From NCBI GenBank assembly GCA_040791665.1, contig JBFNNX010000026.1, positions 49,435-113,434 of the forward strand: a stretch of 64,000 bases of DNA. The letters run 5' to 3'. This DNA comes from Candidatus Thiodiazotropha sp. GTDB taxonomy: Bacteria; Pseudomonadota; Gammaproteobacteria; Chromatiales; Chromatiaceae. Below are positions 29,276 to 46,304 of this stretch, piece after piece. The position numbers and the translations under genes are program-made. Within the stretch, counting starts at the first letter, position 1. Each line of letters opens with the position of its first letter. The notes beneath the pieces are model-generated. The model had not been told where the DNA came from. It made no database searches and saw only the letters and a list, made by a program, of their open reading frames with translations.

Positions 29276-29914
29276 CTATTCAGCCAACAGCTGTTGTGCG
29301 CTTCCGGTTTCCAAGCCGAACTCCTCCTCGACCATCTTCAGCCAGCGCTCCCTCTTGAAGGTCTTTTCATCCGGTACTTTTCTGTGTACCAGGTTGATAT
29401 GACAGTCGATGCAGCTTTTTCCTTTAGTCTCTTCGCGGTGTATGGAATTGGTGTCGGCACGTCTGCCTTGAATCGCTTCCAACACATGACATCGCTTGCA
29501 GGTGGCTGAGTCCCTCGCCTTGAACCATTTCCTGGCTTCAAAGGCGGCGTCTGGAAGATGCAGTGTGTTGATCACGGGATCGTCGTAATCCGGTCCAAAG
29601 AGCTTTCCCGAGATTTGGGTCAGGAGATCCTTCCCCCCCAGGAAGTGATCCCAGGTGGCGGCGAAAACGCCTTCGGAGACGTGACAGTCCCCGCAGGATG
29701 CGCGCACACCGGATATGGGTTTATAGTGTGTCGAGAGCCGGTAGGTTTCCGCCGCGATCTCCATGGAGTGACAAGTGGTGCAAAACGCTTCTGAACTGGT
29801 GAGCTCGTCAAATTCAATCAGAAACAGTAGAAATCCGATTCCGGCTATACCACCGATGACAAGTGCAACGAGTACCTGCCGATTTACGAAGTAGGGCAGT
29901 TTCCATTTACTCAT
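29276..29914 (-). CDS. NapC/NirT/cM552-family membrane tetraheme cytochrome c
   Basis: N-terminal TM; CTTCH, CGDCH, CKRCH, CIDCH. Confidence 0.9.
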   Translation of the reverse strand: MSKWKLPYFVNRQVLVALVIGGIAGIGFLLFLIEFDELTSSEAFCTTCHSMEIAAETYRLSTHYKPISGVRASCGDCHVSEGVFAATWDHFLGGKDLLTQISGKLFGPDYDDPVINTLHLPDAAFEARKWFKARDSATCKRCHVLEAIQGRRADTNSIHREETKGKSCIDCHINLVHRKVPDEKTFKRERWLKMVEEEFGLETGSAQQLLAE

Positions 29915-31361
29915 CGGCTTGCCTTTTTATATCGTAACCGAGGATCGGATTGGATTTCTGCGGCTGCTTCAGCCACTGATGAAGGTCGTTTGACGTTACA
30001 TATGCCTGGATCAGTTCACTGGCCTTCTCTGCACCGGCAATCTCTTCCAATTGTGGGAGGAATCGGGTGTAGAAGTTTCTTCCGACCAGGTACATACCCT
30101 CCCACCAGGTATGGTTGGCGCTGGCCATCGAAGCGCCATGGCGGGCACGTGCCCCCTCATCGTGCCATAACTCCCAATAGGTGAATTCGATCGGTTCGTC
30201 AAACGGGGTAGGTGTCAAAATGCCTTCGGAGTAGAGGGTTTGCATAATCTGTTTTGCCGGTATACCGAATTTCTCATTGAACAGTTTCACCACGTCGTCA
30301 AACTGCTCCATGAAGCTCTCTGTCAATGCCTTGCTGTGGCATTCCAGGCAAACCAGTTTCATCGCCTGGCGTCTACGCTTCGGTGATGCGACAGCCTTGA
30401 CCTTGCCCATGCTCCCGTCGGCCTTGCTGAGTTCACTGCCACGTCTCGGGGAAGTGTGAGATTCGGGAAGCTCGATTTTCTCACCGTCATCGAAAACCAC
30501 CAGCTGTTGTCTTATTGAAACCGGTGTGTTCAAGCTCCATGCATTGCGCATACCGACGTCGTGGTTTGCCTTCAATTTTCCGGCGGCGCCCATGTGGCAG
30601 GTTACACATGTGGGCGCGGCCACGTAGTCCTTGCCTGCGATCCAGCTGTCACTGTCCAGCGCCATTTCATCCCGGTGCGCTTCAAACTGCATACCATGCT
30701 TAGACGCTTCATATATCGCCTTGTCGGGTGAGTCGGGACCGGAGTGGCATCGGATGCAGGCGCTTGGCTCTCTGGCCTGGGCCTTGGAAAAACGGTGCTT
30801 GCCATGACAGGATGAGCAGGACCCCTTGGAACCATCGGGATTGATCCGCCCGATACCGGAATTGGGCCAGCTTCGCGGATCTAACGAGCCGTCGCCACGC
30901 ACCTCTACCTTGGAGCCATGACACTGGTTGCAGCCGGCAGCCACGATGGCATCGCCACCCACATGTCCCGCCAAGGCGGGTAGCCTGTTTTCAATGATGC
31001 TCACCGCTTCGGAGTGGACCGATCCTTTCTGCTGCTCATACTCGACAGTGTGGCAGCGGGAACAATCCAGGGGGGAGACGATGGTGGCGATAACCTGTCC
31101 TTCATGGGTAATCGCATCATTGTCGTCGACTGAGGCCTTGTGACAGTCAAGGCAGTTGACGCCCGCCTCGGCATGAGCGCTCTTGCGCCACTGCTTTGTT
31201 AAGCCGGATGAGCTCTTCTCATGGCAGCTGATGCACTCCTTGCCCAGGGGATCGCCCCATTCGCTCGGGTCTACGCTGACCTTGGCGGCAAACAGCTCCG
31301 GATTGCAGCAGAGAAGAGCACAGATCAGAAAGCGCCTCAGTAGGGATGGGTTCATTAACAA
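29907..31361 (-). CDS. Hydroxylamine oxidoreductase-like octaheme cytochrome c
   Basis: Eight CxxCH (CISCH, CLDCH, CSRCH, CNQCH, CSSCH, CIRCH, CVTCH, CLECH) with HAO-family motifs GIGRINPDGSKGSC, YEASKHG, APTCVTCH and WHDEGARARHG. Confidence 0.88.
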   Translation of the reverse strand: MLMNPSLLRRFLICALLCCNPELFAAKVSVDPSEWGDPLGKECISCHEKSSSGLTKQWRKSAHAEAGVNCLDCHKASVDDNDAITHEGQVIATIVSPLDCSRCHTVEYEQQKGSVHSEAVSIIENRLPALAGHVGGDAIVAAGCNQCHGSKVEVRGDGSLDPRSWPNSGIGRINPDGSKGSCSSCHGKHRFSKAQAREPSACIRCHSGPDSPDKAIYEASKHGMQFEAHRDEMALDSDSWIAGKDYVAAPTCVTCHMGAAGKLKANHDVGMRNAWSLNTPVSIRQQLVVFDDGEKIELPESHTSPRRGSELSKADGSMGKVKAVASPKRRRQAMKLVCLECHSKALTESFMEQFDDVVKLFNEKFGIPAKQIMQTLYSEGILTPTPFDEPIEFTYWELWHDEGARARHGASMASANHTWWEGMYLVGRNFYTRFLPQLEEIAGAEKASELIQAYVTSNDLHQWLKQPQKSNPILGYDIKRQADE

Positions 31362-31767
31362 TCTCCTTGAGCTGGAGTGTCAATTCTTACATCCGAGCCA
31401 GATACTGCCTGAGGCTTTTTCGTGATTATGAATTATGGATGACAGTCCAGCTGTTTTGTTATTTTTGGCACATGCCAAAGCTTGGCTTGTTTCGTAATCC
31501 TATCACGATGACTCGTCTTGCCAATGATATTTGTCATTCATAAATGGAAAACCACCAATTTCAAAAATAAAAAACAGCGGAAGACAGGATAAAACTACCA
31601 ATAAAATACAGGGTATTTACTAATCAACAATTTTAATCATCTGCGCTTAGTCAAAAACATTTCGGTTTTTTGTTTGGTATGTCCAGCATTGTGTGTATTA
31701 TTCCTAGTCGAGAAGAATAAGAAGTAATAATTCTCTCACCCACTAACAACAAATAAGGAGGGAAACC

Positions 31768-33063
31768 ATGGAAGCAGTCTCCGCTTCAAGGGCGTTTCAT
31801 GCAATAAGCTTTCTGTTTTCAGCATTGGTTCTGCTCATACTTCCCACAACTGCATTGGCCGGTGCAGACGAACCTATTCACCATGTCTCCTCGGAAGTCT
31901 GTAAAAATTGTCATAAAGAGATCTATAACCAGTGGAAAGGCTCGATGCATGCCCAGAGTACGGCATTGAAGGATCCAATTCATGCCACCTTCTACAAGAA
32001 GGTTGTAGGCAGTCCCGTGGAAGAGGGGGTCAAGCATAAAGCATCTGGCAAATATCCGGTCTGCTTGCAGTGTCATGCACCGAATGCGGCCGTTGACAAG
32101 ACAACCAAGCTCGATGCCAAACCTGCCTATGCGGAAGGGGTCAACTGCGTTGCCTGTCATACCCTGGCAAAATTCAAGGGAACAAGCGGCAAGAATGGCA
32201 AACTGCTGTTGGGACTCAAAGCCTATGAGCGTAAGAATGAACTGCAGGGACCTCAAGGTTTCAACCAGGGACTGACGAAACTGGTCGCGGCTGACGATAT
32301 GTTCGGCGGTGCAGCCAGTGATGAAGACTCGAAACCCAATCCCCATACTCAGGGAGAAGTTGAGCTGGACGGTAAGAAGATCCAGGCCCTGCCGATGGCT
32401 GGGAATCCAGTTTTAATGAAGACAAATGCTGCCTGCATGGGTTGTCATGACAAACGCAACAATCCACATGGCGTTCCACTTTGCCAGACAGGCAATGAGT
32501 ATGCGGGAAGCAATGTTAACTGCCAATCCTGTCATATGCCCGTCGCCGGGGGTATGGTGGATCACGGCATGGGCGGCGGTCATAATCATGCCATGCTAAA
32601 ACGCAGTGTCGTGTTCACCGTGGATGCAGTAAAGACGGGGGATAGCCTGAATGCCACTGTCAAGCTGAAGAACATGCAGCCGCACAGTCTTCCCACGGGC
32701 GCGCCTTTCAGAAACATCTATTTGAAACTCGCGGCCTACGACGCATCGGGCAATGTAGTTTGGCAAAACGCTGAAGGCCATCCCGCCAAAAGCGATTCCA
32801 AAGCCTATTTTGCCTACCTTTTGGCCGATGACAAGGGAGATCCGGCGATGCCTCCGACTGCAACCCAGCTCGGCGTCGATTCGCGTCTCAAACCCTATGA
32901 AGAGCGTATTCTGTCGTACAAAATTCCCGCCAAGGATGCGGTATTGGTAAGAGGAGAGCTCTTCTACAATCTGCTTTGGCCCGTTCTGGTAGAAAAATTC
33001 AAGCACCTACCGGAAGATTTGGTGGCGCCGGAGTCAATCGCTATAGCAGAGGTTAATCTCTAG
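31768..33063 (+). CDS. Exported pentaheme cytochrome c (c554-type domain plus C-terminal beta domain)
   Basis: Signal peptide; CKNCH, CLQCH, CVACH, CMGCH, CQSCH; W..S.HA and HSLPTG motifs. Confidence 0.8.
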   Translation: MEAVSASRAFHAISFLFSALVLLILPTTALAGADEPIHHVSSEVCKNCHKEIYNQWKGSMHAQSTALKDPIHATFYKKVVGSPVEEGVKHKASGKYPVCLQCHAPNAAVDKTTKLDAKPAYAEGVNCVACHTLAKFKGTSGKNGKLLLGLKAYERKNELQGPQGFNQGLTKLVAADDMFGGAASDEDSKPNPHTQGEVELDGKKIQALPMAGNPVLMKTNAACMGCHDKRNNPHGVPLCQTGNEYAGSNVNCQSCHMPVAGGMVDHGMGGGHNHAMLKRSVVFTVDAVKTGDSLNATVKLKNMQPHSLPTGAPFRNIYLKLAAYDASGNVVWQNAEGHPAKSDSKAYFAYLLADDKGDPAMPPTATQLGVDSRLKPYEERILSYKIPAKDAVLVRGELFYNLLWPVLVEKFKHLPEDLVAPESIAIAEVNL

Positions 33064-33074
33064 TCAAGCAAAGT

Positions 33075-33102
33075 CCTCACACCGGTGAGACCCGGTGTGA
33101 GG
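33075..33102. other. Intercistronic 11-bp stem-loop without U-tract
   Basis: CCTCACACCGG-TGAGAC-CCGGTGTGAGG. Confidence 0.6.
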
Positions 33103-33129
33103 CATCTAAAATCTGGTTCGGGGGGCGTT

Positions 33130-34734
33130 ATGTGCTCATTTAAGAGTTGTACACTACGTCTGGCCTCACTGTTGCAGTTCATCTTGTTTCTGATGTTTGC
33201 CATCAACCTGACGGCATCAGATGAGATAATCAGTTCAACGGCCGATCACACTAAGTTCGAATCGCTTCAACAGGCCTTCAGCACAGGTCCGGAAGTGACA
33301 AAAGCCTGTCTCGAGTGCCATACTGAAGCCGCTAGACAGATCCATAAAACCAAACATTGGAATTGGCAATTCACCCACCCCGATACCGGCGAGGAGCTGG
33401 GAAAACAGACAATTGTCAACAATTTCTGCGGTGCCATTGAGACCAATTATGCCCGCTGTACGAGTTGTCATGTCGGTTATGGATGGAAAGACAACAGCTT
33501 CGATTTCAGTTCTGAAACGAATGTCGATTGCCTTGTCTGTCACGACACAACAGGTACCTACAAAAAGTTTCCGACCGGGGCAGGACATCCCCCCTATGTG
33601 GATAAACCCTTCCCGCCCAAGAGCAAAAAGATCTGGAAAGCGCCGGATCTTGCTCATGTGGCCCAGCATGTCGGCAAGACTAGTCGAAAAACCTGTGGCG
33701 CCTGCCATTTTTATGGTGGTGGCGGTGATGGTGTCAAGCATGGTGATCTCGATTCGAGTATGACCGATCCAAGCAAATCGCTCGATGTCCATATGGGCAC
33801 GGATGGGCTGGATTTCGTCTGCAGTACCTGCCACCAGAAAGATGGGCACGATGTATCGGGCAGTCGATATACCACTCAGGCCAAGGATACACAGGGTATC
33901 GATGTGCCGGGTCGTGGCGATAATATCCGCTCGACCTGCGAGTCCTGCCACGGCCTCAAGCCTCATCCCGTCACGGTAAACAACAAACTGAACGATCACA
34001 TCAACAAGGTTGCCTGCACAACATGCCATATTCCAACCTATGCCAGGGGCGGCAAGCCGACCAAGACCTGGTGGGACTGGTCAACGGCAGGGCGTATGAG
34101 CAATGACGGTAAACACATCAAGACAAAAGATGACCAGGGCTATGTAAACTACGTCACCAAAAAAGGCTCTTTCGAATGGGGTGAAAACCTGAAACCGGAA
34201 TATGCTTGGTTTTCGGGCAATATTCGTTATAAGCAACTCGATGAAAAGATCGATCCCAACAAGGTCGTTGCAATCAATACCTTCGAAGGGAGTTATGATG
34301 ACCCTGATGCCAGGATCTGGCCATTTAAGGTGATGCGGGGCAAACAGCCCTATGACAAAGGCAACAACACCCTGGTAACGACCCATCTCTTCGGCAAGGA
34401 CAGTAATGCATATTGGAAGTCCTTTGATTGGAACAGGGCAATTAAAGCAGCCATGGATGCAGGTAATGCCGCATACAGCGGCGAATACGGTTTCATCGAA
34501 ACCACCTACCACTGGCCGTTGGCACATATGGTTGCCCCTGTAGACCAGGCGCTCGGCTGTGAAGCCTGTCATGCAAAGGATGGTCGGCTAAGTAAGCTCA
34601 CTGGTTTTTACATGCCCGCTCGGGACAGTTACTACTGGGTCGATCTGATCGGCTGGCTGGCGGTCTTGGGTACCGTGGGGGGTATTTCCATCCATGGCTT
34701 GGGTCGGCTCTTCTCGAAAGCCAAGCGGAGATAA
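33130..34734 (+). CDS. otr: Octaheme tetrathionate reductase (Otr) family cytochrome c
   Basis: TADH..F, eight CxxCH, NNFC...RCTSCH, GGGGDGVKHGDL, WDWSTAG, C-terminal TM. Confidence 0.88.
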   Translation: MCSFKSCTLRLASLLQFILFLMFAINLTASDEIISSTADHTKFESLQQAFSTGPEVTKACLECHTEAARQIHKTKHWNWQFTHPDTGEELGKQTIVNNFCGAIETNYARCTSCHVGYGWKDNSFDFSSETNVDCLVCHDTTGTYKKFPTGAGHPPYVDKPFPPKSKKIWKAPDLAHVAQHVGKTSRKTCGACHFYGGGGDGVKHGDLDSSMTDPSKSLDVHMGTDGLDFVCSTCHQKDGHDVSGSRYTTQAKDTQGIDVPGRGDNIRSTCESCHGLKPHPVTVNNKLNDHINKVACTTCHIPTYARGGKPTKTWWDWSTAGRMSNDGKHIKTKDDQGYVNYVTKKGSFEWGENLKPEYAWFSGNIRYKQLDEKIDPNKVVAINTFEGSYDDPDARIWPFKVMRGKQPYDKGNNTLVTTHLFGKDSNAYWKSFDWNRAIKAAMDAGNAAYSGEYGFIETTYHWPLAHMVAPVDQALGCEACHAKDGRLSKLTGFYMPARDSYYWVDLIGWLAVLGTVGGISIHGLGRLFSKAKRR

Positions 34735-34738
34735 ATCA

Positions 34739-35341
34739 ATGAGCCAAATCTATTATTTCTCACTCTTTGAACGCCTGTGGCATTGGTCTCAAGCGATACT
34801 GATATTCGGTATGCTGATAACCGGATTTGAAATCCACGGAACCTATCATTTGTTCGGCTTTGAACAGGCTATCGACCTGCATACGATCATGGCATGGGTA
34901 CTGATCGGCTTGTGGCTGCTCGCACTGTTTTGGCATACAACCACTGGGGAGTGGCGCCAGTATGTGCCGAGCGATCCTGACAGCATGCTGGCAATGGTCA
35001 AGTATTATGCAGTCGGTATCTTTCTCGGTGCGCCACATCCCTTCCACCGGAAACGCGCGGAAAAGCACAATCCGCTGCAGAGAATGGCTTATTTGATGCT
35101 AACAATGGTCATTTCACCGATTATCTGGATCAGTGGATTACTCTATCTTTTTTATCAATACTGGCCATCCATCGGACTGCAGGACGTGCAGCTTGGGTTG
35201 ATTGCTGTCGTGCACACAATCGGCGCATTCGCAATACTTTGCTTTATACCCATTCATCTCTATTTGGCTTTGACAACGGGAGAAAAGCCTTTTGGAAACC
35301 TGGTGGAGATGATAGTCGGGCATGAGGCCAAGGATGGTTGA
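34739..35341 (+). CDS. Cytochrome b subunit (PhsC / Ni-hydrogenase cytochrome b type)
   Basis: FERLWHWSQA, LHTIMAW, KHNPLQRMAY, VHTIGAF...IHLY; four TM with heme His residues. Confidence 0.85.
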   Translation: MSQIYYFSLFERLWHWSQAILIFGMLITGFEIHGTYHLFGFEQAIDLHTIMAWVLIGLWLLALFWHTTTGEWRQYVPSDPDSMLAMVKYYAVGIFLGAPHPFHRKRAEKHNPLQRMAYLMLTMVISPIIWISGLLYLFYQYWPSIGLQDVQLGLIAVVHTIGAFAILCFIPIHLYLALTTGEKPFGNLVEMIVGHEAKDG

Positions 35342-35552: not shown

Positions 35553-36941
35553 CTACTTATCTATTCCGTAGCGTTTCATCTTCTGCCATAAGTTTTTACG
35601 GGAAATGCCCAAGGAATCTGCTGTCTGGTTGATTTTGCCGCTATTTTCCGCCAATGCCCTGACAATTGACTTTCTTTCAGCTTCTTCAATAGTCTCTTTA
35701 AGTGTGGTTGTGTCGTGATCGTGGGCGCTGTTGTCCGTGATAGACAGGTCGTTTTTGCTGATCCAAGGTCCATCGCACAGGGCGACAGCTCTTTCGATGA
35801 TATTTTTAAGTTCACGAACATTTCCAGGGAATGACATGGATTGAAGATAGAGTTCAGCCTCCTTCGACAAACCTTTGACGCCCCCTTTTTTACATTGTCC
35901 AAGCTGGCTGACGAACTGCCTTGCAAGATAGACGATATCCTCCCTGCGTTGACGCAGTGGTGGGATATCGATATGGATTACATTGAGACGCCAGTAGAGA
36001 TCCGATCTGAATTCGTTTTTTTCAATAGCTACATCGAGGTTGGCCTGGGTTGCGGCGATTACCCTTACATCAAGCGGGATTGAAACAGATCCGCCAACAC
36101 GTTCAAACTCCCTCTCCTGCAGCACTCTCAGCAGTTTTACCTGTATGTCAGACGATACTTCCGCAATTTCATCAAGAAAGATGGTGCCCCCTTGAGCCTG
36201 CTCAAAACGCCCTTTTCGTTGATGTGTCGCTCCTGTAAAGGAGCCCTTTTCATGACCGAAGAGCTCACTTTCGATCAGTGTGGAAGGTAGGGCGGCACAG
36301 TTTACACTTACCATGGGGCCTTGTGACCTGAGACTGTTGTTGTGGATCAGGTTTGCAACGACTTCCTTGCCAACCCCGGACTCTCCTGTAAGCAATACTG
36401 AACTGTCACTCTCTCTGAGACGTGCCACCAGTCTCTCGATCTTTCGCATAGCGTTGCTTTTTCCCAAACAACCGCTACCCGGTTTGAGATGATCAATTGC
36501 CGCGCTCGAGCCTTTGGTCGTCAATTGGTTGTCAGAGATACAAGAGAGCTGATGAATTACTTTCTTTATAAAATCATTGATGTCAAATGGTTTTGTAAGA
36601 TAATCAAAAGCGCCGGCTTTAACTGTGGCGACTGCGTCCGATATATCGCCATAGGCCGTCATGAGGATGACTGGTATGCCTGGAAAATTGCTTGAGATAT
36701 CTGTAAAGAGTTCGATCCCTGTGCCATCCGGTAGACGGATATCGGTTACCACTAGGTCAATATCACCTTTTTCCAGCTCTTTTCTTGCGCTCGCGGTATC
36801 GCTTACCGCACGCACGGGAATCGATTCCATGCGTAACCTGTCAACAAGAGAGATTTGCATGATTTCATCATCTTCAACCAGCAATAGACATAAGTCTTTG
36901 AATCTACCCCTATCCATTGTGTAATCGATACTATTCTGCAT
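35553..36941 (-). CDS. Sigma-54-dependent response regulator (NtrC family, AioR-like)
   Basis: Receiver (VEDD, DIRLPD, KPF), AAA+ (GESGVGKE, ELFGHEKGSFTGA, FLDEI), Fis-type HTH. Confidence 0.95.
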   Translation of the reverse strand: MQNSIDYTMDRGRFKDLCLLLVEDDEIMQISLVDRLRMESIPVRAVSDTASARKELEKGDIDLVVTDIRLPDGTGIELFTDISSNFPGIPVILMTAYGDISDAVATVKAGAFDYLTKPFDINDFIKKVIHQLSCISDNQLTTKGSSAAIDHLKPGSGCLGKSNAMRKIERLVARLRESDSSVLLTGESGVGKEVVANLIHNNSLRSQGPMVSVNCAALPSTLIESELFGHEKGSFTGATHQRKGRFEQAQGGTIFLDEIAEVSSDIQVKLLRVLQEREFERVGGSVSIPLDVRVIAATQANLDVAIEKNEFRSDLYWRLNVIHIDIPPLRQRREDIVYLARQFVSQLGQCKKGGVKGLSKEAELYLQSMSFPGNVRELKNIIERAVALCDGPWISKNDLSITDNSAHDHDTTTLKETIEEAERKSIVRALAENSGKINQTADSLGISRKNLWQKMKRYGIDK

Positions 36942-38425
36942 TAGGCCGCCTGTCTGTTGATTACAGGCAGTTCGATGAGGAAAGTCGTGCCTTTTCCTAC
37001 CTCGCTCTCAACCTCGATAATACCTTGCATATTCTGAACCAGACGATAGACGACCCAAAGCCCCAATCCCGTGCCATTGGGTTTGGTCGTAAAGAAAGGA
37101 TCGAACATTTGGTTTCTTATATTTGAGGCAACACCGGGGCCATTGTCACTGACTTTGATTACGAGAAGACTTCCTTCCTGATGCATGTTGAAAGCAATGG
37201 TTCCATTCTCGGGAATGATTTCAACGGCGTTCTTCAGCAAATTGCAGATAATCTGTTCGGTCTTTCCCGGAATACAGGTATCTCTATCGGTCTTATTGTT
37301 CCAGAATATTTTGATATCTCTTTCACCTATTTCAGCCAGGATCAAATCATGAAGCTTGTCGACCTGTTCAATATTTATCATTTCATCACTCTCCTCGTTC
37401 TTGAGCCCAACGAGCAGGTTGTGGACAATATCCTTGATCCGATGCAGACCCTGGTCAATCACCGGTAGATAACGATCGATCAACTCCTTGTCGTTTGGAT
37501 GCTGACGTAGCGTATCTATGCAGTTTAATAGCCCTGCCAGAGGATTGTTTACCTCATGTGCCACACCTGCGGTTATTCTTCCTAGGGCAACCAACTTCTC
37601 GCTCATTGCGATCTCCTCCTCGAGCATCTTTTTTTCCGCAAGTTCAGACATGATTTGATTGAAGGTCACACTGAGCCTCCCTATTTCATCCCCCTCTTTC
37701 ACCGGTATTGGAGAAAAATCTGTCATCTCTCCACGCCCAACCGCCTCAAGTCCATGAGTTATTGCAGTCAAAGGTCCGACCACCCGCCTGGATACTATGG
37801 TGCCCAGCAGGCTTCCGATGATGACAAAGAGCAATATTGAAAGGAGAACGATTACAGTTGTCGACTTTGCCTTTTCAAACAGACTGGCGACAGAGAGGCG
37901 AACCCGAACTACTCCAAGGTATTTTTGATCTGAAAACAGAGGTACGACACCTTCCTGGAATCCATCCCTGGAAAAGAAATCCCCACTACTCAATACAGTC
38001 GGGGTTCTTGCGGCCATCGCCTGATTGGCTATCGTTTTATCAGCTTCATTTTCTGGAGAGAATACGAGGCCTATCGGGTGCTTCGCAGGATGAAGGTGCG
38101 CCTGAACTACACCTTCTGCATCCAATATCATCGCATCTATAATTTCATGTTCGCTTCTGGCCCCAGGTCCCTTAGACGCCATATTCTTGAGACTGAGGTA
38201 AAGAGACCAGTAGTCCTTACGCAGCATTGCCTTTGGTGCAGTGATTGAAATGGATTCTGATAGCAGCAGCGCTTTCTCACCCAGGTCATTTTGAAATCGA
38301 TTCCAGTCCTGGAGAACCATGAGGCCTCCGATGAGGAATCCGACACTGGTGACAACGGCCGTTATGGTAAGGGATAACTTTATCGCCAATGGCCAGGATT
38401 TTGGATTAATCATGGGCATTTGCAT
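36941..38425 (-). CDS. HAMP sensor histidine kinase (AioS-like)
   Basis: Two TM, HAMP (GDEIGRL), AHEVNNPL, NLLKNA, DNGPG, FFTTKPNGTGLGL. Confidence 0.93.
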   Translation of the reverse strand: MQMPMINPKSWPLAIKLSLTITAVVTSVGFLIGGLMVLQDWNRFQNDLGEKALLLSESISITAPKAMLRKDYWSLYLSLKNMASKGPGARSEHEIIDAMILDAEGVVQAHLHPAKHPIGLVFSPENEADKTIANQAMAARTPTVLSSGDFFSRDGFQEGVVPLFSDQKYLGVVRVRLSVASLFEKAKSTTVIVLLSILLFVIIGSLLGTIVSRRVVGPLTAITHGLEAVGRGEMTDFSPIPVKEGDEIGRLSVTFNQIMSELAEKKMLEEEIAMSEKLVALGRITAGVAHEVNNPLAGLLNCIDTLRQHPNDKELIDRYLPVIDQGLHRIKDIVHNLLVGLKNEESDEMINIEQVDKLHDLILAEIGERDIKIFWNNKTDRDTCIPGKTEQIICNLLKNAVEIIPENGTIAFNMHQEGSLLVIKVSDNGPGVASNIRNQMFDPFFTTKPNGTGLGLWVVYRLVQNMQGIIEVESEVGKGTTFLIELPVINRQAA

Positions 38426-39377: not shown

Positions 39378-39793
39378 TTTATGCCACGGTACCAGTGCGA
39401 TAAATGTCATGTGCACCCTGTGGAGAACAAGGGCCGTCTCTGGCTTCGCCTTCCTGTAGTTTCATAATTGCTATCTTCCAATGATAGCAGAATCCATTGT
39501 TTAATCTGGAAGTCCTTGTTTTTTTTAATTGCGCAAGTTTATTGCCCTGATTACCTATTTGTACTCTCAATTTAAGAGACGAGTGAAGAGGCTATCATTT
39601 TAATGCTTCTCCCTTTTGCTGTTTGTTACCGTCCGGTAACAGACTGTACGGCACTATTTCACTAACGATATGTAATTAAAGAACAAACCAGAACGGTTAC
39701 GGTTTCAACTGAAACGTTACCAAGAGGTAACAAAATTTGGATTGCTAATTCTATCGTTATATGTTTTTTCCAATATTTCAGGCAGATATGAAT

Positions 39794-39810
39794 TTGGAAC
39801 GACTCTTGCT
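39794..39810 (+). promoter_or_regulatory. Sigma-54 (-24/-12) promoter of the cytochrome/Mo-enzyme operon
   Basis: TTGGAACGACTCTTGCT has GG-N10-GC with a close consensus match, 67 bp before the ATG at 39878. Confidence 0.8.
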
Positions 39811-41398: not shown

Positions 41399-41460
41399 TC
41401 TTTCAACAAACACACAATCAACAGTAGCGGAGGATGAGAAGATGCGTAGGAGAATACGAT

Positions 41461-42312
41461 ATGAGTGACAACAAAACACCAGACATCAACCGTCGCAAAT
41501 TCCTGAGTGGTGTAGGCACAGCCGCGGTAGGCGCTGCGGCCTTGGCGACACCGAGGGTAAGTCTTGAAGCAGCCCAATCAAAAGCACCTCGATGGGCGAT
41601 GGTCATGGACCTGAGGCGCTGCATAGGCTGCAGGGCCTGTACAGTCGCCTGCAAATCGGAAAACAACGTTTCGTTGGGCCGCTTCCGGGCAGTCATCCAA
41701 GAGAAAACCATGGGCACCTTTCCAAAGACCAAAAAGGAATTCTTACCCCTGATGTGCAATCACTGCGAGGGCAATGAGAAAGATGGCGTTCCTCCTTGTG
41801 TGAAAATATGTCCGGAGTATCCAGGCAAACGGGCCAAGTTCAAAACATCTGATGGCAAAACAATACGCTATCGCACAGGTGCGACCTATAAGCGTCCCGA
41901 TGGCATGATCCTGATAGACAAAGAAAAATGTATCGGCTGCGGTAAGTGTATCGATGCCTGCCCGTACGGGGTGCGTTCATTTGATCCCTTTGTAAAAGCG
42001 GGTGGTGACCAGACAAAGCAGGCAGCGGACAAATGCGATCTGTGTGCGCATCGTGTCGATAACGGGATCGAACCCTCCTGCGTCAACACTTGCCAGGGTC
42101 GCGCACGTATTTTCGGAGACCTGAACGATCCGAGCAGCGAAGTCTCCAAGCTTGTAAAAGAGCACAACCTGGCCAAGGCAGACAATGTACTGCTTCCGGA
42201 AGAGGGAACCAATCCACATGTGTTCTACATCGATCCCGACAACATGTTGAAAACCCTCTATACACAGCGAAAGAAGGGCAAGCTGGACCACTTTGTGGAC
42301 CAGATTCCATAG
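41461..42312 (+). CDS. Tat-exported 4x[4Fe-4S] electron-transfer subunit (TtrB/PsrB/DmsB family)
   Basis: NRRKFL Tat motif; DLRRCIGCRACTVAC, CNHC...CVKIC, CIGCGKCIDAC, CDLC...CVNTC. Confidence 0.92.
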   Translation: MSDNKTPDINRRKFLSGVGTAAVGAAALATPRVSLEAAQSKAPRWAMVMDLRRCIGCRACTVACKSENNVSLGRFRAVIQEKTMGTFPKTKKEFLPLMCNHCEGNEKDGVPPCVKICPEYPGKRAKFKTSDGKTIRYRTGATYKRPDGMILIDKEKCIGCGKCIDACPYGVRSFDPFVKAGGDQTKQAADKCDLCAHRVDNGIEPSCVNTCQGRARIFGDLNDPSSEVSKLVKEHNLAKADNVLLPEEGTNPHVFYIDPDNMLKTLYTQRKKGKLDHFVDQIP

Positions 42313-42345: not shown

Positions 42346-44871
42346 ATGAAAAAGTTAAATCGTCGTGATTTCATGAAATTGACTGCCGGCAGCGGCTGTG
42401 CATTGGCGACTGGATTGGGCTGCAGTCAGAGCGCATTTGCCGGATCGCTTAAACTGCAGGCAGGCGGCAAGGATTTTTCACCTACAACAGGTAAGGAGAG
42501 AAAGGCAATCCCCACAGCCTGCTGGCAGTGTGTAACCCGAGACTCCATGATCGGTTATGTGGAGGATGGGCGCCTGGTAAAGCTCGAGGGACATCCCGAT
42601 TCCATACGCACACTCGGCAAACTCTGTGCCAAGGGACAGGCGGGTATCAACCAGGTCTATTTCCCGGACCGGATCCTGCACCCAATGAAACGCGTAGGCA
42701 AACGTGGCGAGCACAAGTGGAAACGAATTTCCTGGGACGAGGCCCTTGATCTGGTTGTATCCAAGCTGAAACCTCTGCGTGATGCGGGTACCCCAGAACT
42801 GTTTATGTATCAGTACGGAAGACACAAGGCGTCTCAGGCCGCGACCATGTACGACTTCATGCAGGCCTATGGCACTGGCACCATCGGTAATCACACCTCT
42901 GTCTGCGAGGCGGCAAAATGGGTGGGACAAGAGAGTCTTTGGGGCGGCATGTATGACAACTGGGATTATGACAAAACCGATTACGTGGTGATTTTCGGCA
43001 GCAATCAGTTCGAGACCCATACCAATCACATTCCGACCGCCCAGCGTCTGATTCGGGCCAAGGTTGATCGTGGTGTACCCCTATACGTATTCGATGTGCG
43101 CCTGACAAATACCGCAGCCAAGGCCGATCAGTGGGTGCCGATCAATGTGGGACATGACGGACTGGTGATGCTGGCCATGTGCAATGTCATCATGAACGAG
43201 AAACTCTACAGGAAGGACCACTTCAAATTCATGCGTGTCACCGAAGACTACAAGGCGACTGTCGATGAGAAGATTGCAGCCGTGAAGAAAAATGTCGCCA
43301 AGTACACCCCTGAGTTTGCAGAGAAACACAGTGGCGTGCCTGCCGATACCATACGCAAGATCGCTCGCGGATTCGCAAAAGCCAAATCGGCCTGCCTGGT
43401 TACCTACCGTGGAACGGTAATGCACTATCACGGCGCAGATCAGGAACGGGCGGCAATGCTGTTGTCGGCCATTACCAACAATCTCGATCGTCCGGGTGGT
43501 CGTGTCATGGGTGTTGGAGCAGGCTGGAAACATCCTTCCTCCCCCAAGGCAAAGGTTCACAAAACCCTCCACGTCAAGGACGGATTTCCGGGTGAAGCGG
43601 CCTACCCGACTCACCATGTAAGTCACCAGGTACTTCCGATGATCAAAGATGGCAACGCGGGTCGACCGAAGGTCTACTGGTGGAGTTGCTACAACCCAGG
43701 GTTCATCAATGGCGACAACAAGGAACTCCAGTCGATCCTGAAAGATGAGAGCATCATCCCATTCCTCATTACAACAACCATCGTCTACGACGAGTCCTCT
43801 CAGTATGCAGACCTGATCCTGCCCGACGTCACCTACCTGGAACGCTGGGACTGGGAGGACATGGTGTCGGCAAATCAGATCGCAGAATTCTATATCCGGC
43901 AGCCATTGGTGAAACCGTTGGGAGAATCACGTTGCCAGGGCGATGTCTGGCCCGAGCTGGCCAAGCGCATGGGCTTTGAACTGGCATACTCCAGCAAGGA
44001 GGACTTCGTACGCCAGTCCTGCGAGATGACGCCCGGCGTGCGTGAGGCCGGGGGCTTCGAGTATATGAAGAAGCACGGTGTTTGGCACGATCCGAACGCC
44101 AAGCCCAACTACGGCTTCTATGAGAACAAGGTGGACGTATCCGGCGATGGCGTGATTCTCGACGAGAAGACCGGAGTCTACTGGAACTGGAAAAAGGCGG
44201 GTGTCAACAGCGAAGCCGAGGCCAAGCGTCAGGGGTATCTGGGTACAAAAGGCGCGAAAAAGGCGTATGTCGCGCAAAACATCGATGGCGCGGCATACAA
44301 GGCCTACCCGCCCAATACCAAGTTCGTCAAGGCGGGATATCTGGACTTCTATTCAGATAATTTCGTCAAAAAGGGCTTTCCGGCATTCCCATCCTATACA
44401 CCGATTCCTGAACACCAGAAGATGGCGGATGATGAGCTGAATCTCACCACCTACAAGGTGGCGGTACATACCCATTCAAGGACCGCACACTGCAAGTGGC
44501 TCACCGAGATCAAGCACGATAATCCCGGCTGGATCAATACCAAGACGGCTGAAGCGCGCGGTATTAAGAACGGTGACAAGATCAGGGTCTATAACAGCCT
44601 GGGTGAGATCACCACCACAGCCTATGTCACCGAGGGTATTATTCCGGGCGTGATCGCCATATCCCATCACCTGGGTCGCAAGCACTCGGGGGTCTATGGA
44701 TCGGGCAAGCGTTCTCCCACGCCAGGTGGTGCCACAGCTGATCCGGATGTGAAGAATATATGGTGGAAAAAACATGGCACTCATCCCAATACCATCATCC
44801 CCAACTCTTCAGATCCTATCAGCGGCACACAGAGGTGGATGGATACCGTCGTCAGGGTAGCCAAGGCATAA
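42346..44871 (+). CDS. Tat-exported Mo/W-bisMGD oxidoreductase catalytic subunit (Psr/Phs/Ttr/Arr branch of the DMSO reductase family), substrate unknown
   Basis: NRRDFM Tat motif; FS0 region CWQCVTRD...KLCAKG; putative Mo-ligand Cys in GNHTSVCEAAK; LILPDVTYLERW; C-terminal MGD-binding domain. Confidence 0.9.
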   Translation: MKKLNRRDFMKLTAGSGCALATGLGCSQSAFAGSLKLQAGGKDFSPTTGKERKAIPTACWQCVTRDSMIGYVEDGRLVKLEGHPDSIRTLGKLCAKGQAGINQVYFPDRILHPMKRVGKRGEHKWKRISWDEALDLVVSKLKPLRDAGTPELFMYQYGRHKASQAATMYDFMQAYGTGTIGNHTSVCEAAKWVGQESLWGGMYDNWDYDKTDYVVIFGSNQFETHTNHIPTAQRLIRAKVDRGVPLYVFDVRLTNTAAKADQWVPINVGHDGLVMLAMCNVIMNEKLYRKDHFKFMRVTEDYKATVDEKIAAVKKNVAKYTPEFAEKHSGVPADTIRKIARGFAKAKSACLVTYRGTVMHYHGADQERAAMLLSAITNNLDRPGGRVMGVGAGWKHPSSPKAKVHKTLHVKDGFPGEAAYPTHHVSHQVLPMIKDGNAGRPKVYWWSCYNPGFINGDNKELQSILKDESIIPFLITTTIVYDESSQYADLILPDVTYLERWDWEDMVSANQIAEFYIRQPLVKPLGESRCQGDVWPELAKRMGFELAYSSKEDFVRQSCEMTPGVREAGGFEYMKKHGVWHDPNAKPNYGFYENKVDVSGDGVILDEKTGVYWNWKKAGVNSEAEAKRQGYLGTKGAKKAYVAQNIDGAAYKAYPPNTKFVKAGYLDFYSDNFVKKGFPAFPSYTPIPEHQKMADDELNLTTYKVAVHTHSRTAHCKWLTEIKHDNPGWINTKTAEARGIKNGDKIRVYNSLGEITTTAYVTEGIIPGVIAISHHLGRKHSGVYGSGKRSPTPGGATADPDVKNIWWKKHGTHPNTIIPNSSDPISGTQRWMDTVVRVAKA

Positions 44872-45632: not shown

Positions 45633-46304
45633 TCAGGGTCTTCTTTTTGAGCCGTACCGATTATGAAGAGTGATCTCTTGATCGGGCATCATACCTAGTT
45701 CCCTGCCTTCCTTGATGGCGAAGCCGATAGGTGCCCCAAGATTCATCCGGTAGGCCGCCCACATGGTCCCAAGCAGTTCCGCTCTCGGAGCATAGACCAA
45801 CAGCATTCCATGGCTGGCATCTACAACGTGTTGAGTGAAATTCTCCACCTGCTCCAGACTCGGTAGGTTGCCGTCAACCGGGATGCTTATATAGCGCATA
45901 CCCAGCGCTTCGGTCTCCAGTTGATGCAGGCGAGCAGTTTTTTTCGGTGTGCCAAGATCGATTACCGTTTTAAATCCAAACGCCTCCAGCTCAGCAATAC
46001 GATTGAGCGGCCGCCCCATGGTGGCCTGCAGATAAGGTATGGCGCGGCCTGGGTCAGGTATTGCAATGCCGTAACCCATCCGTCCCGGAAGCTTTGACGA
46101 GTGATGGTTAAGCATTTGGGGTAACACCCTTCCGTCCGGGGTAGTTGCTACTTCGCTATCATCCCTATTTACTTCACCATCACCCCACCAACCACATGCA
46201 CCGACCTGTCCCGGAGACATTAAAATGATGCATAACAGAAATAGGGTGGACGAAGCTATAGTGTTACATGGTTTTACTGCACTGAACATGGGATTGAGTC
46301 TCAA
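45633..46304 (-). CDS. Exported protein with a DUF442/PTP-like domain lacking the catalytic Cys
   Basis: Hydrophobic leader, CGWWGDGE, GFKTVIDL, GMRYISIPV; LLVYAPRAE stands where HCxxGxR is expected. Confidence 0.55.
   Translation of the reverse strand: MRLNPMFSAVKPCNTIASSTLFLLCIILMSPGQVGACGWWGDGEVNRDDSEVATTPDGRVLPQMLNHHSSKLPGRMGYGIAIPDPGRAIPYLQATMGRPLNRIAELEAFGFKTVIDLGTPKKTARLHQLETEALGMRYISIPVDGNLPSLEQVENFTQHVVDASHGMLLVYAPRAELLGTMWAAYRMNLGAPIGFAIKEGRELGMMPDQEITLHNRYGSKRRP

Follow-up and report, generated by a model that had tools for sequence, protein, structure and literature searches.

An aspartate at the third cysteine position of the FS0 iron-sulfur motif in an uncharacterised family of molybdenum or tungsten oxidoreductases, encoded beside an AioXSR-like module in Candidatus Thiodiazotropha

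We analysed a 64,000-nt stretch of DNA from Candidatus Thiodiazotropha sp., a sulfur bacterium of the clam-symbiont type (hereafter the window; coordinates are window-based), which encodes the catalytic subunit of a predicted molybdenum or tungsten bis(pyranopterin guanine dinucleotide) (Mo/W-bisPGD) oxidoreductase with an Asp in its N-terminal iron-sulfur motif, FS0, at the position of the third Cys. The gene is part of an operon in the order cytochrome, iron-sulfur (FeS) subunit, catalytic subunit and chaperone, and genes for a sensor (X), a histidine kinase (S) and a response regulator (R) run divergently from it (Table 1). Pfam matches to Molybdop_Fe4S4 (residues 53-105), Molybdopterin (109-541; 120.2 bits vs a cut-off of 24) and Molydop_binding (698-829; 69 vs 26.8 bits) place the protein in the Mo/W-bisPGD superfamily, also known as the dimethyl sulfoxide reductase, MopB or complex iron-sulfur molybdoenzyme (CISM) superfamily. 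A twin-arginine signal, NRRDFMK, near the N-terminus of its translation predicts export by the twin-arginine translocation (Tat) pathway and a periplasmic location.

The full FS0 spacing is C59-x2-C62-x3-D66-x27-C94, which departs from the type I pattern C-x2-C-x3-C-xn-C by the Asp in third position. When the protein was compared by phmmer with the PDB, C59, C62, D66 and C94 aligned with the four FS0 Cys of T. thermophilus PsrA (2vpw) and Shewanella ArrA (6cz7); C94 is the sole other Cys of the FS0 domain besides C59 and C62. Together with a 24-mer that occurs once in the window and in frame, this alignment bears out the first-pass annotation, which had read the motif as CWQCVTRD...C with Asp in the place of the third Cys. 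The Molybdop_Fe4S4 domain scored above its cut-off despite the Asp (34.1 vs 22.7 bits), and an Asp in a former Cys position with the three other Cys kept is the sequence pattern of an Asp-ligated [4Fe-4S] cluster. In the same search, C187 fell in one column with the Cys that ends SVSLC in PsrA and SHSSVC in ArrA, which we take to be their Mo-ligand Cys, as is found in the Cys/SeCys-ligated branch of the superfamily (Psr/Phs/Srr, Arr/Arx, Ttr, Fdh, Nap). Seven other Mo-bisPGD paralogues were found in the genome, six with Cys at the third FS0 position and one, DmsA-like, with His; the latter lies outside the window (C10:157262-158980, + strand) and reads C-AHN-C-GSR-H.

Table 1 Features of the locus within the 64,000-nt window.
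Feature	Position	Strand	Basis
Sigma-54-dependent response regulator, AioR-like position	35553..36941	-	Pfam Response_reg, Sigma54_activat and HTH_8; syntenic in 56/79 loci
HAMP sensor histidine kinase, AioS-like position	36941..38425	-	Pfam HAMP, HisKA and HATPase_c; syntenic in 48/79 loci
AioX-like periplasmic oxyanion-binding sensor, 289 aa	38435..39304	-	Pfam Phosphonate-bd, 196 bits; in 55/79 loci
Palindrome GTTACCGTCCGGTAAC, candidate upstream activator site 1	39625..39640	.	GTTACC-N4-GGTAAC type
Palindrome GTTACCAAGAGGTAAC, candidate upstream activator site 2	39716..39731	.	GTTACC-N4-GGTAAC type, 91 bp from site 1
Sigma-54-type -24/-12 element TGGAACGACTCTTGCT	39795..39810	+	One mismatch to TGGCAY-N5-TTGCW; cytochrome start codon 68 bp downstream
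Membrane-anchored multihaem cytochrome c, 506 aa	39878..41398	+	Pfam Cytochrom_NNT, residues 18-101; kept in 68/79 loci
FeS electron-transfer subunit, 292 aa, own Tat signal	41434..42312	+	Four Cys groups; beside the catalytic gene in 76/79 loci
Catalytic subunit, 841 aa, Psr/Phs/Arr-like branch, predicted Mo/W-bisPGD	42346..44871	+	Open reading frame, translation, Pfam and PDB matches
FS0 N-terminal part, C59-W-Q-C62-V-T-R-D66	42520..42543	+	24-mer TGCTGGCAGTGTGTAACCCGAGAC, single exact match in the window, in frame
Asp66 codon GAC, third FS0 Cys position	42541..42543	+	Translation; alignment to PsrA and ArrA
Cys94 (KLCAKGQ), fourth FS0 ligand position	42625..42627	+	No variation in alignment A1 or among the 187 aligned family sequences
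Cys187 (NHTSVC), predicted Mo/W ligand	42904..42906	+	Alignment to PsrA and ArrA; invariant in the family
TorD/NarJ-family maturation chaperone, 217 aa	44901..45554	+	Pfam Nitrate_red_del, 79 bits; kept in 76/79 loci

Conservation of Asp66 was then considered at three levels. Among the 121 closest full-length database homologues (59-96% identity), CW.CVTRD was present in 118 and CVTRC in the other three, which removes the concern, raised with the original observation, that close homologues might all carry Cys. A set with one genome per species comprised 79 loci, of which 66 had Asp, 11 had Cys and two were truncated (Asp in 66/77 readable loci); the Asp codon was GAC in 34 and GAT in 32 of these 66 species loci, and the use of both codons points to a constraint on the amino acid, not on the DNA. 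A family alignment of 187 non-redundant sequences had Asp in this column in all 173 Asp-type members, with no Glu, Asn, Ser, Gly or Ala among them, while C59, C62, C94 and Cys187 were invariant throughout, in agreement with the earlier description of the rest of the gene, including the Mo-ligand Cys of NHTSVC, as intact. No Cys column in this alignment was specific to the Asp group, so that a compensating Cys elsewhere as fourth ligand was rejected for the clade of the window gene, and position 80 was the only further column that discriminated Asp-type from Cys-type sequences. The nearest named relative was Candidatus Thiodiazotropha endolucinida (97% identity), and Magnetovibrio sp. PR-2, a cultured carrier, has an Asp-type gene of 79% identity (P0046); family loci were also found in Sedimenticola, in many Rhodospirillales, Thalassospiraceae and Kiloniellaceae metagenome-assembled genomes, and in Desulfobacteraceae, Syntrophobacterales, Nitrospirota and Mariprofundaceae. 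Orthologues that retain Cys, at 57-63% identity, occur in Nitrospirota, Mariprofundaceae and some Proteobacteria. Judged from these alignments, in which the motif recurs far more often than chance would allow, the Asp is real and held by purifying selection in the proteobacterial and Desulfobacterota branches.

To place the exchange in the history of the family, quick-search LG+G4 trees were used, one of the family plus outgroups and a wider one of representatives. The outgroups and the most basal family group (L082, P0121, L072, L083, L085, L086) carry Cys, as do two Nitrospirota groups and P0115, while the Desulfobacterota group carries Asp except for one Cys member (L079). A large proteobacterial crown clade that includes the window gene is uniformly Asp (27/27 sampled, 100% branch support). 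The minimum is three Cys/Asp changes within the family and five overall, the latter forced by well-supported branches of the wider tree, and forcing all Asp members into one clade cost 87 log-likelihood units (approximately unbiased (AU) test, p = 0.024, for a group named after the tree had been seen). Asp as a marker of a single-origin clade was therefore rejected, with the same proviso on the post hoc grouping. The proposal of the first-pass annotation that the Asp marks a distinct enzyme clade thus holds only in part: the residue is uniform in the proteobacterial crown clade, but there are Cys orthologues in the same family and Asp lineages outside it. Among these, an exhaustive search with 50%-identity representatives recovered more distant PhsA-like lineages (P0128/P0138/P0252; P0137; P0141/P0150/P0165/P0228; P0164), and none of the other Asp-bearing lineages tested fell into a curated NCBIfam family. 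The sister Asp lineage P0128/P0138 reads CWQCVARDGIVCH, with an extra Cys four residues past the Asp that could serve in its place as ligand; the clade of the window gene lacks this Cys. A few relatives (P0206, P0218, P0214) have Ser or Thr at the third FS0 position, and neither of the one-base intermediates, Gly or Tyr, was seen at this column among the 187 family and about 95 representative sequences tabulated. Overall, Cys appears to be ancestral, and Asp appears to have been gained repeatedly by a two-base change and then kept.

We next compared the enzyme with the described members of the superfamily. No NCBIfam model scored over its cut-off for the catalytic subunit: the top match was PhsA (333.8 bits vs 694), and the scores with ArrA (167.4 vs 1600), TtrA (115 vs 1750) and the AioA model TIGR02693 (29.8 vs 359) were lower. 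Membership in PhsA, ArrA, TtrA, DmsA, QrcB and AioA was rejected, the scores being far under the cut-offs. PsrA (2vpw) was both the best sequence match (E = 1.4e-50) and the best fold match (Foldseek E = 9.8e-35, template modelling (TM) score 0.67/0.76), and ArrA (6cz7) the second best in both; fold matches of the model to PsrA, FdhH and ArrA ranged from TM 0.6 to 0.76. Identity of the window enzyme to PsrA and ArrA is, however, only about 21-22%. Like PsrABC and PhsA, it pairs a Mo-bisPGD subunit that is Cys-ligated, exported by Tat and headed by an FS0 domain with an FeS partner of four clusters, but it differs from them in the third FS0 ligand, which is Cys there, in its AioXSR-like regulator, and in the anchor, which is of the NrfD type there (PsrC/PhsC) and a 12-haem, NapC-headed cytochrome in the window operon. 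With ArrAB and ArxAB it shares the A-B pair, a TorD-like chaperone and an adjacent XSR-type control module; its YGRH and NHTSVC align with RGRY and SHSSVC of ArrA, whereas FS0 is all-Cys both in ArrA and in the Arr/Arx-like paralogue of the same genome. In addition, the NapC-type head of the window cytochrome resembles CymA, the NapC/NirT-family partner of Shewanella ArrAB; ArrAB is reported to need this tetrahaem cytochrome for quinol electrons (PMC2762525).

In this superfamily, electrons must go through FS0 on their way between the Mo/W centre and the remainder of the respiratory chain. Three ways of ligating this cluster are known, namely by four Cys, by His and three Cys (Nar/Ebd), and by three Cys in the case of a [3Fe-4S] cluster (Aio/Idr). 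The type II enzymes NarG and EbdA, which have His at the first FS0 position, H-x3-C-x3-C spacing and an Asp that ligates Mo, are a precedent for a non-Cys residue in the ligand set of a Mo-bisPGD enzyme; the window enzyme differs from them in having its Asp at the third position, type I spacing and a Cys as predicted Mo ligand. AioA has Ser at the fourth FS0 position, so that both position and residue differ from the window enzyme, as well as a Rieske partner and Mo without an amino-acid ligand. The window locus encodes an FeS subunit and a cytochrome and no Rieske partner, and by its TIGR02693 score the catalytic subunit belongs to another MopB branch than AioA. What it has in common with AioA and IdrA is an N-terminal cluster site with one Cys ligand missing, which in those enzymes holds a high-potential [3Fe-4S] cluster (PMC10100899). 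AioA is also controlled by AioXSR, the type of module that lies beside the window operon. Identity with the Sb(III) oxidase NaoABC was rejected, since NaoABC is NapA-related and has a Rieske subunit (PMC11521347). The first-pass annotation had also allowed that the motif might already characterise a described enzyme; no NCBIfam family claims the protein, no description of Asp at FS0 or of a CX2CX3D/CxxCxxxD motif was found in the open-access literature searched, and the word aspartate is absent from a review of the MopB superfamily (PMC10100899). The best explanation of these comparisons is an uncharacterised, widespread periplasmic Mo/W-bisPGD oxidoreductase related to PsrA/PhsA and ArrA/ArxA. 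As far as sequence comparison can tell, it has a non-canonical ligand set at a cluster site that is otherwise familiar from its superfamily.

The operon partners are widely kept, and their order was retained across phyla in 68-76 of the 79 loci. The cytochrome has an N-terminus of the NapC/NirT type and 12 haem motifs (10 CxxCH, CGGSCH and CLQSGCH), and the FeS subunit matched Pfam Fer4_11 and related domains as well as TtrB/DsrO/ArrB-like NCBIfam models, the latter all under their cut-offs. Basal Cys-type loci (L086, 6243-11230; L072, L083, L085) comprise, in this order, genes for an FeS subunit, an NrfD-like anchor, the catalytic subunit and the chaperone, without the 12-haem cytochrome, and the NrfD-like gene is confined to such basal relatives. 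Because these basal loci use an NrfD-like anchor, the 12-haem cytochrome anchor looks like a later replacement within the family.

The X protein was closest to AioX by phmmer (6esk, E = 4.7e-61), ahead of ArrX (3e-41) and PhnD (4e-17), and its gene is single-copy in the genome. It retains all seven residues of the AioX pocket as listed in PMC5908839 (Y88, C106, Y131, S161, S163, H192, D210). Across 55 X homologues that neighbour family operons, five of the seven pocket residues were invariant, with the Cys kept in 54/55, the Asp in 54/55 and Ser163 in 48/55 (Thr in seven). Sets of X, S and R genes control Aio, Arx and some Arr operons (PMC5908839); in the Aio and Arx systems, binding of As(III) by the sensor is followed by phosphorylation of a sigma-54 activator by the kinase, and the operon is turned on (PMC6011840). 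Of 65 loci, 44 have at least one palindrome of the GTTACC-N4-GGTAAC type upstream of the cytochrome gene at a comparable distance, mostly two of them about 91 bp apart as in the window, and these palindromes are candidate binding sites for the sigma-54 activator. The -24/-12 element taken alone is not above chance in the window. It is, however, identical at equal distance in L008 and L009, with similar elements in 19/65 loci, and its support comes from this conservation. On the strength of gene content and order, the locus is an Aio/Arx-type regulatory architecture joined to a different enzyme.

No AioA was found in the genome. An Arr/Arx-like operon lies elsewhere in it (C10:97800-104200; L098), with an 852-aa catalytic subunit that carries a canonical CQGCTSWC and scores 1137 bits with the ArrA hidden Markov model (HMM), under the cut-off of 1600, together with FeS and chaperone genes. 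It adjoins arsC-like and acr3-like genes and an octahaem-cytochrome/cytochrome b pair that is 48-54% identical to window positions 33085-35341, and no XSR genes are nearby.

Based on these data, we give a probability of about one half to the reading that FS0 is a selected three-Cys-plus-Asp [4Fe-4S] cluster, convertible to [3Fe-4S], in a probable arsenic-oxyanion oxidoreductase. The X protein would bind an arsenic oxyanion, probably arsenite, and turn on the sigma-54 promoter through the AioX/AioS/AioR-like system. FS0 would be assembled on C59, C62 and C94, with the D66 carboxylate as fourth, oxygen ligand of a [4Fe-4S] cluster; its unique iron would be labile, allowing conversion to [3Fe-4S], and its potential would differ from that of the all-Cys form. 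Electrons would pass between Mo, with Cys187 as its ligand, FS0, the four clusters of the FeS subunit, the 12 haems of the NapC-headed cytochrome and the quinone pool, in that order. The adjacent AioX-like sensor makes an arsenic or related metalloid oxyanion the probable substrate, and As(III) oxidation may be somewhat favoured as catalytic direction, since the X protein resembles AioX more closely than ArrX and shows no gap where AioX has its signalling loop; both suggestions are drawn from synteny. A natural precedent for the proposed ligation is the ferredoxin of P. furiosus, whose Asp-ligated [4Fe-4S] cluster is readily converted to [3Fe-4S]. The Asp-bound iron of this cluster is aerobically labile, and in a systematic study of [NiFe] hydrogenase Cys-to-Asp was the best-tolerated ligand substitution (PMC4070099). 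The likeness to the ferredoxin consists in three Cys plus one Asp in a Cys-motif position; the difference is that it is a small soluble protein, not a molybdoenzyme domain, and that its Asp14 takes the place of the second Cys of CxxCxxC.

Several points weigh against this reading. The AlphaFold model has a mean predicted local distance difference test (pLDDT) value of 74.7, falls below 50 at residues 60-65 in the FS0 loop and contains no cofactors, and strict conservation of the Asp is also compatible with a [3Fe-4S] cluster beside an Asp in another role, for example as proton relay. In ArxA-type arsenite oxidases an all-Cys FS0 is functional, and Cys-type orthologues occur in the same operon type, so that the Asp is dispensable for basic function; a link between the Asp and catalytic direction is speculative. 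As to substrate, AioX, ArxX and ArrX have a common pocket and different ligands (PMC5908839), so that the pocket does not settle whether arsenite, arsenate or another oxyanion is bound. The linkage of sensor and enzyme is suggested by synteny, and the window sensor might serve the Arr/Arx-like operon L098 too.

A tentative alternative, which we regard as clearly weaker, is that FS0 is a [3Fe-4S] cluster on C59, C62 and C94 only and that D66 is a non-ligand kept for another role, be it as proton relay, as charge partner gating electron transfer, or for a high potential as in AioA, IdrA and ActB. [3Fe-4S] clusters classically arise where one Cys ligand is lost, and the Ser or Thr of P0206, P0218 and P0214 indicates that non-ligating residues are tolerated at this position in the superfamily. 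High-potential [3Fe-4S] clusters occupy the FS0 site in AioA/IdrA and in ActB (PMC10100899), artificial Cys-to-Asp exchange in PsaC can yield 3Fe clusters (PMC4070099), and an Asp beside the [3Fe-4S] cluster of A. vinelandii ferredoxin I is reported to mediate proton-coupled electron transfer (references in PMC13111528). However, a residue that is not a ligand should have drifted to Ser, Ala, Asn or Gly over 57-97% identity, which was seen in none of the 173 sequences, and recurrent two-base Cys-to-Asp change, in place of one-base change to Ser or Gly, argues that the iron site calls for a carboxylate. For these reasons, and for want of co-varying changes, ligation by Asp is favoured over a plain [3Fe-4S] cluster. 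Ligation, cluster nuclearity and the shift in potential are all inferred here from sequence patterns; with either cluster type, the first electron-transfer step should differ in its potential and in its behaviour towards oxygen and protons from that of the Cys-type orthologues.

That the exchange is instead near-neutral, with Asp as a ligand that leaves potential and function essentially as they were and with a distribution that reflects history and not adaptation, seems to us unlikely. It would fit with an operon architecture common to Cys-type and Asp-type orthologues, with position 80 as the only column that co-varies with the switch, and with the good tolerance of Asp substitutions in hydrogenase (PMC4070099), but a neutral exchange that has to pass through Gly or Tyr should be infrequent and is nevertheless seen repeatedly, and Asp was never lost in the sampled crown clade. 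Much less probable still is that FS0 is absent or the protein a non-catalytic relic of the kind of QrcB- or ActB-like MopB proteins: in many of the more distant relatives from the representative search, either the Mo-ligand Cys or FS0 as a whole is indeed missing, but here the three FS0 Cys, the Mo-ligand Cys, the Tat signal, a dedicated chaperone and the electron-transfer partners are all conserved, and the reading frame is intact and under clear purifying selection. Sequencing or assembly error, strain-specific mutation and pseudogene formation can be discarded, because GAC is two bases away from TGC and TGT, for which the first-pass annotation had called a single sequencing error unlikely, the codon position is Asp in 66 independent species assemblies and more than 100 metagenomic clusters, both Asp codons occur in independent assemblies at 57-97% identity, and the gene is intact.

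A third-position carboxylate that is fixed across four or more phyla, in sequences numbering in the hundreds, and was gained more than once would, if it ligates iron, be a further natural FS0 ligand set. Because Cys-type and Asp-type orthologues have the same operon, they form a ready-made natural experiment, and their pairing could show how far potential, oxygen tolerance and catalytic bias depend on cluster ligation. The enzyme is frequent in lucinid-clam symbionts and in oxygen-deficient marine waters, where its genes stand beside an arsenite-type sensor, and its characterisation could add a missing enzyme to marine arsenic and metalloid cycling. A more far-reaching proposal, which we consider doubtful, is that the family adds to Aio and Arr/Arx a third, so far unrecognised lineage of respiratory oxidoreductases for arsenic (or antimony) oxyanions, with the recurrent Cys-to-Asp exchange at FS0 as a redox-tuning switch. 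In that case the Asp would raise the cluster potential or provide a 3Fe/4Fe-convertible, proton-coupled centre, biasing the enzyme towards metalloid oxidation with the 12 haems as a wire to the quinone pool, in marine sulfur oxidisers, Rhodospirillales of oxygen-minimum zones and clam symbionts.

Two further features flank the genes described above. A multihaem cytochrome cluster lies upstream (29276-35341) and encodes NapC-type tetrahaem, HAO-like multihaem, c554-type and Otr-like (Cytochrome_cB) proteins together with a cytochrome b; the Otr/cytochrome b pair is present in three copies in the genome. At 45633-46304 on the minus strand, a 223-aa protein with an N-terminal hydrophobic stretch has a weak dual-specificity phosphatase-like Pfam match (PTP-NADK, 28 bits). 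It may be an accessory protein of the system, and a homologue was found within the examined flank of 23 of the 79 loci, mostly just 3' of the operon.

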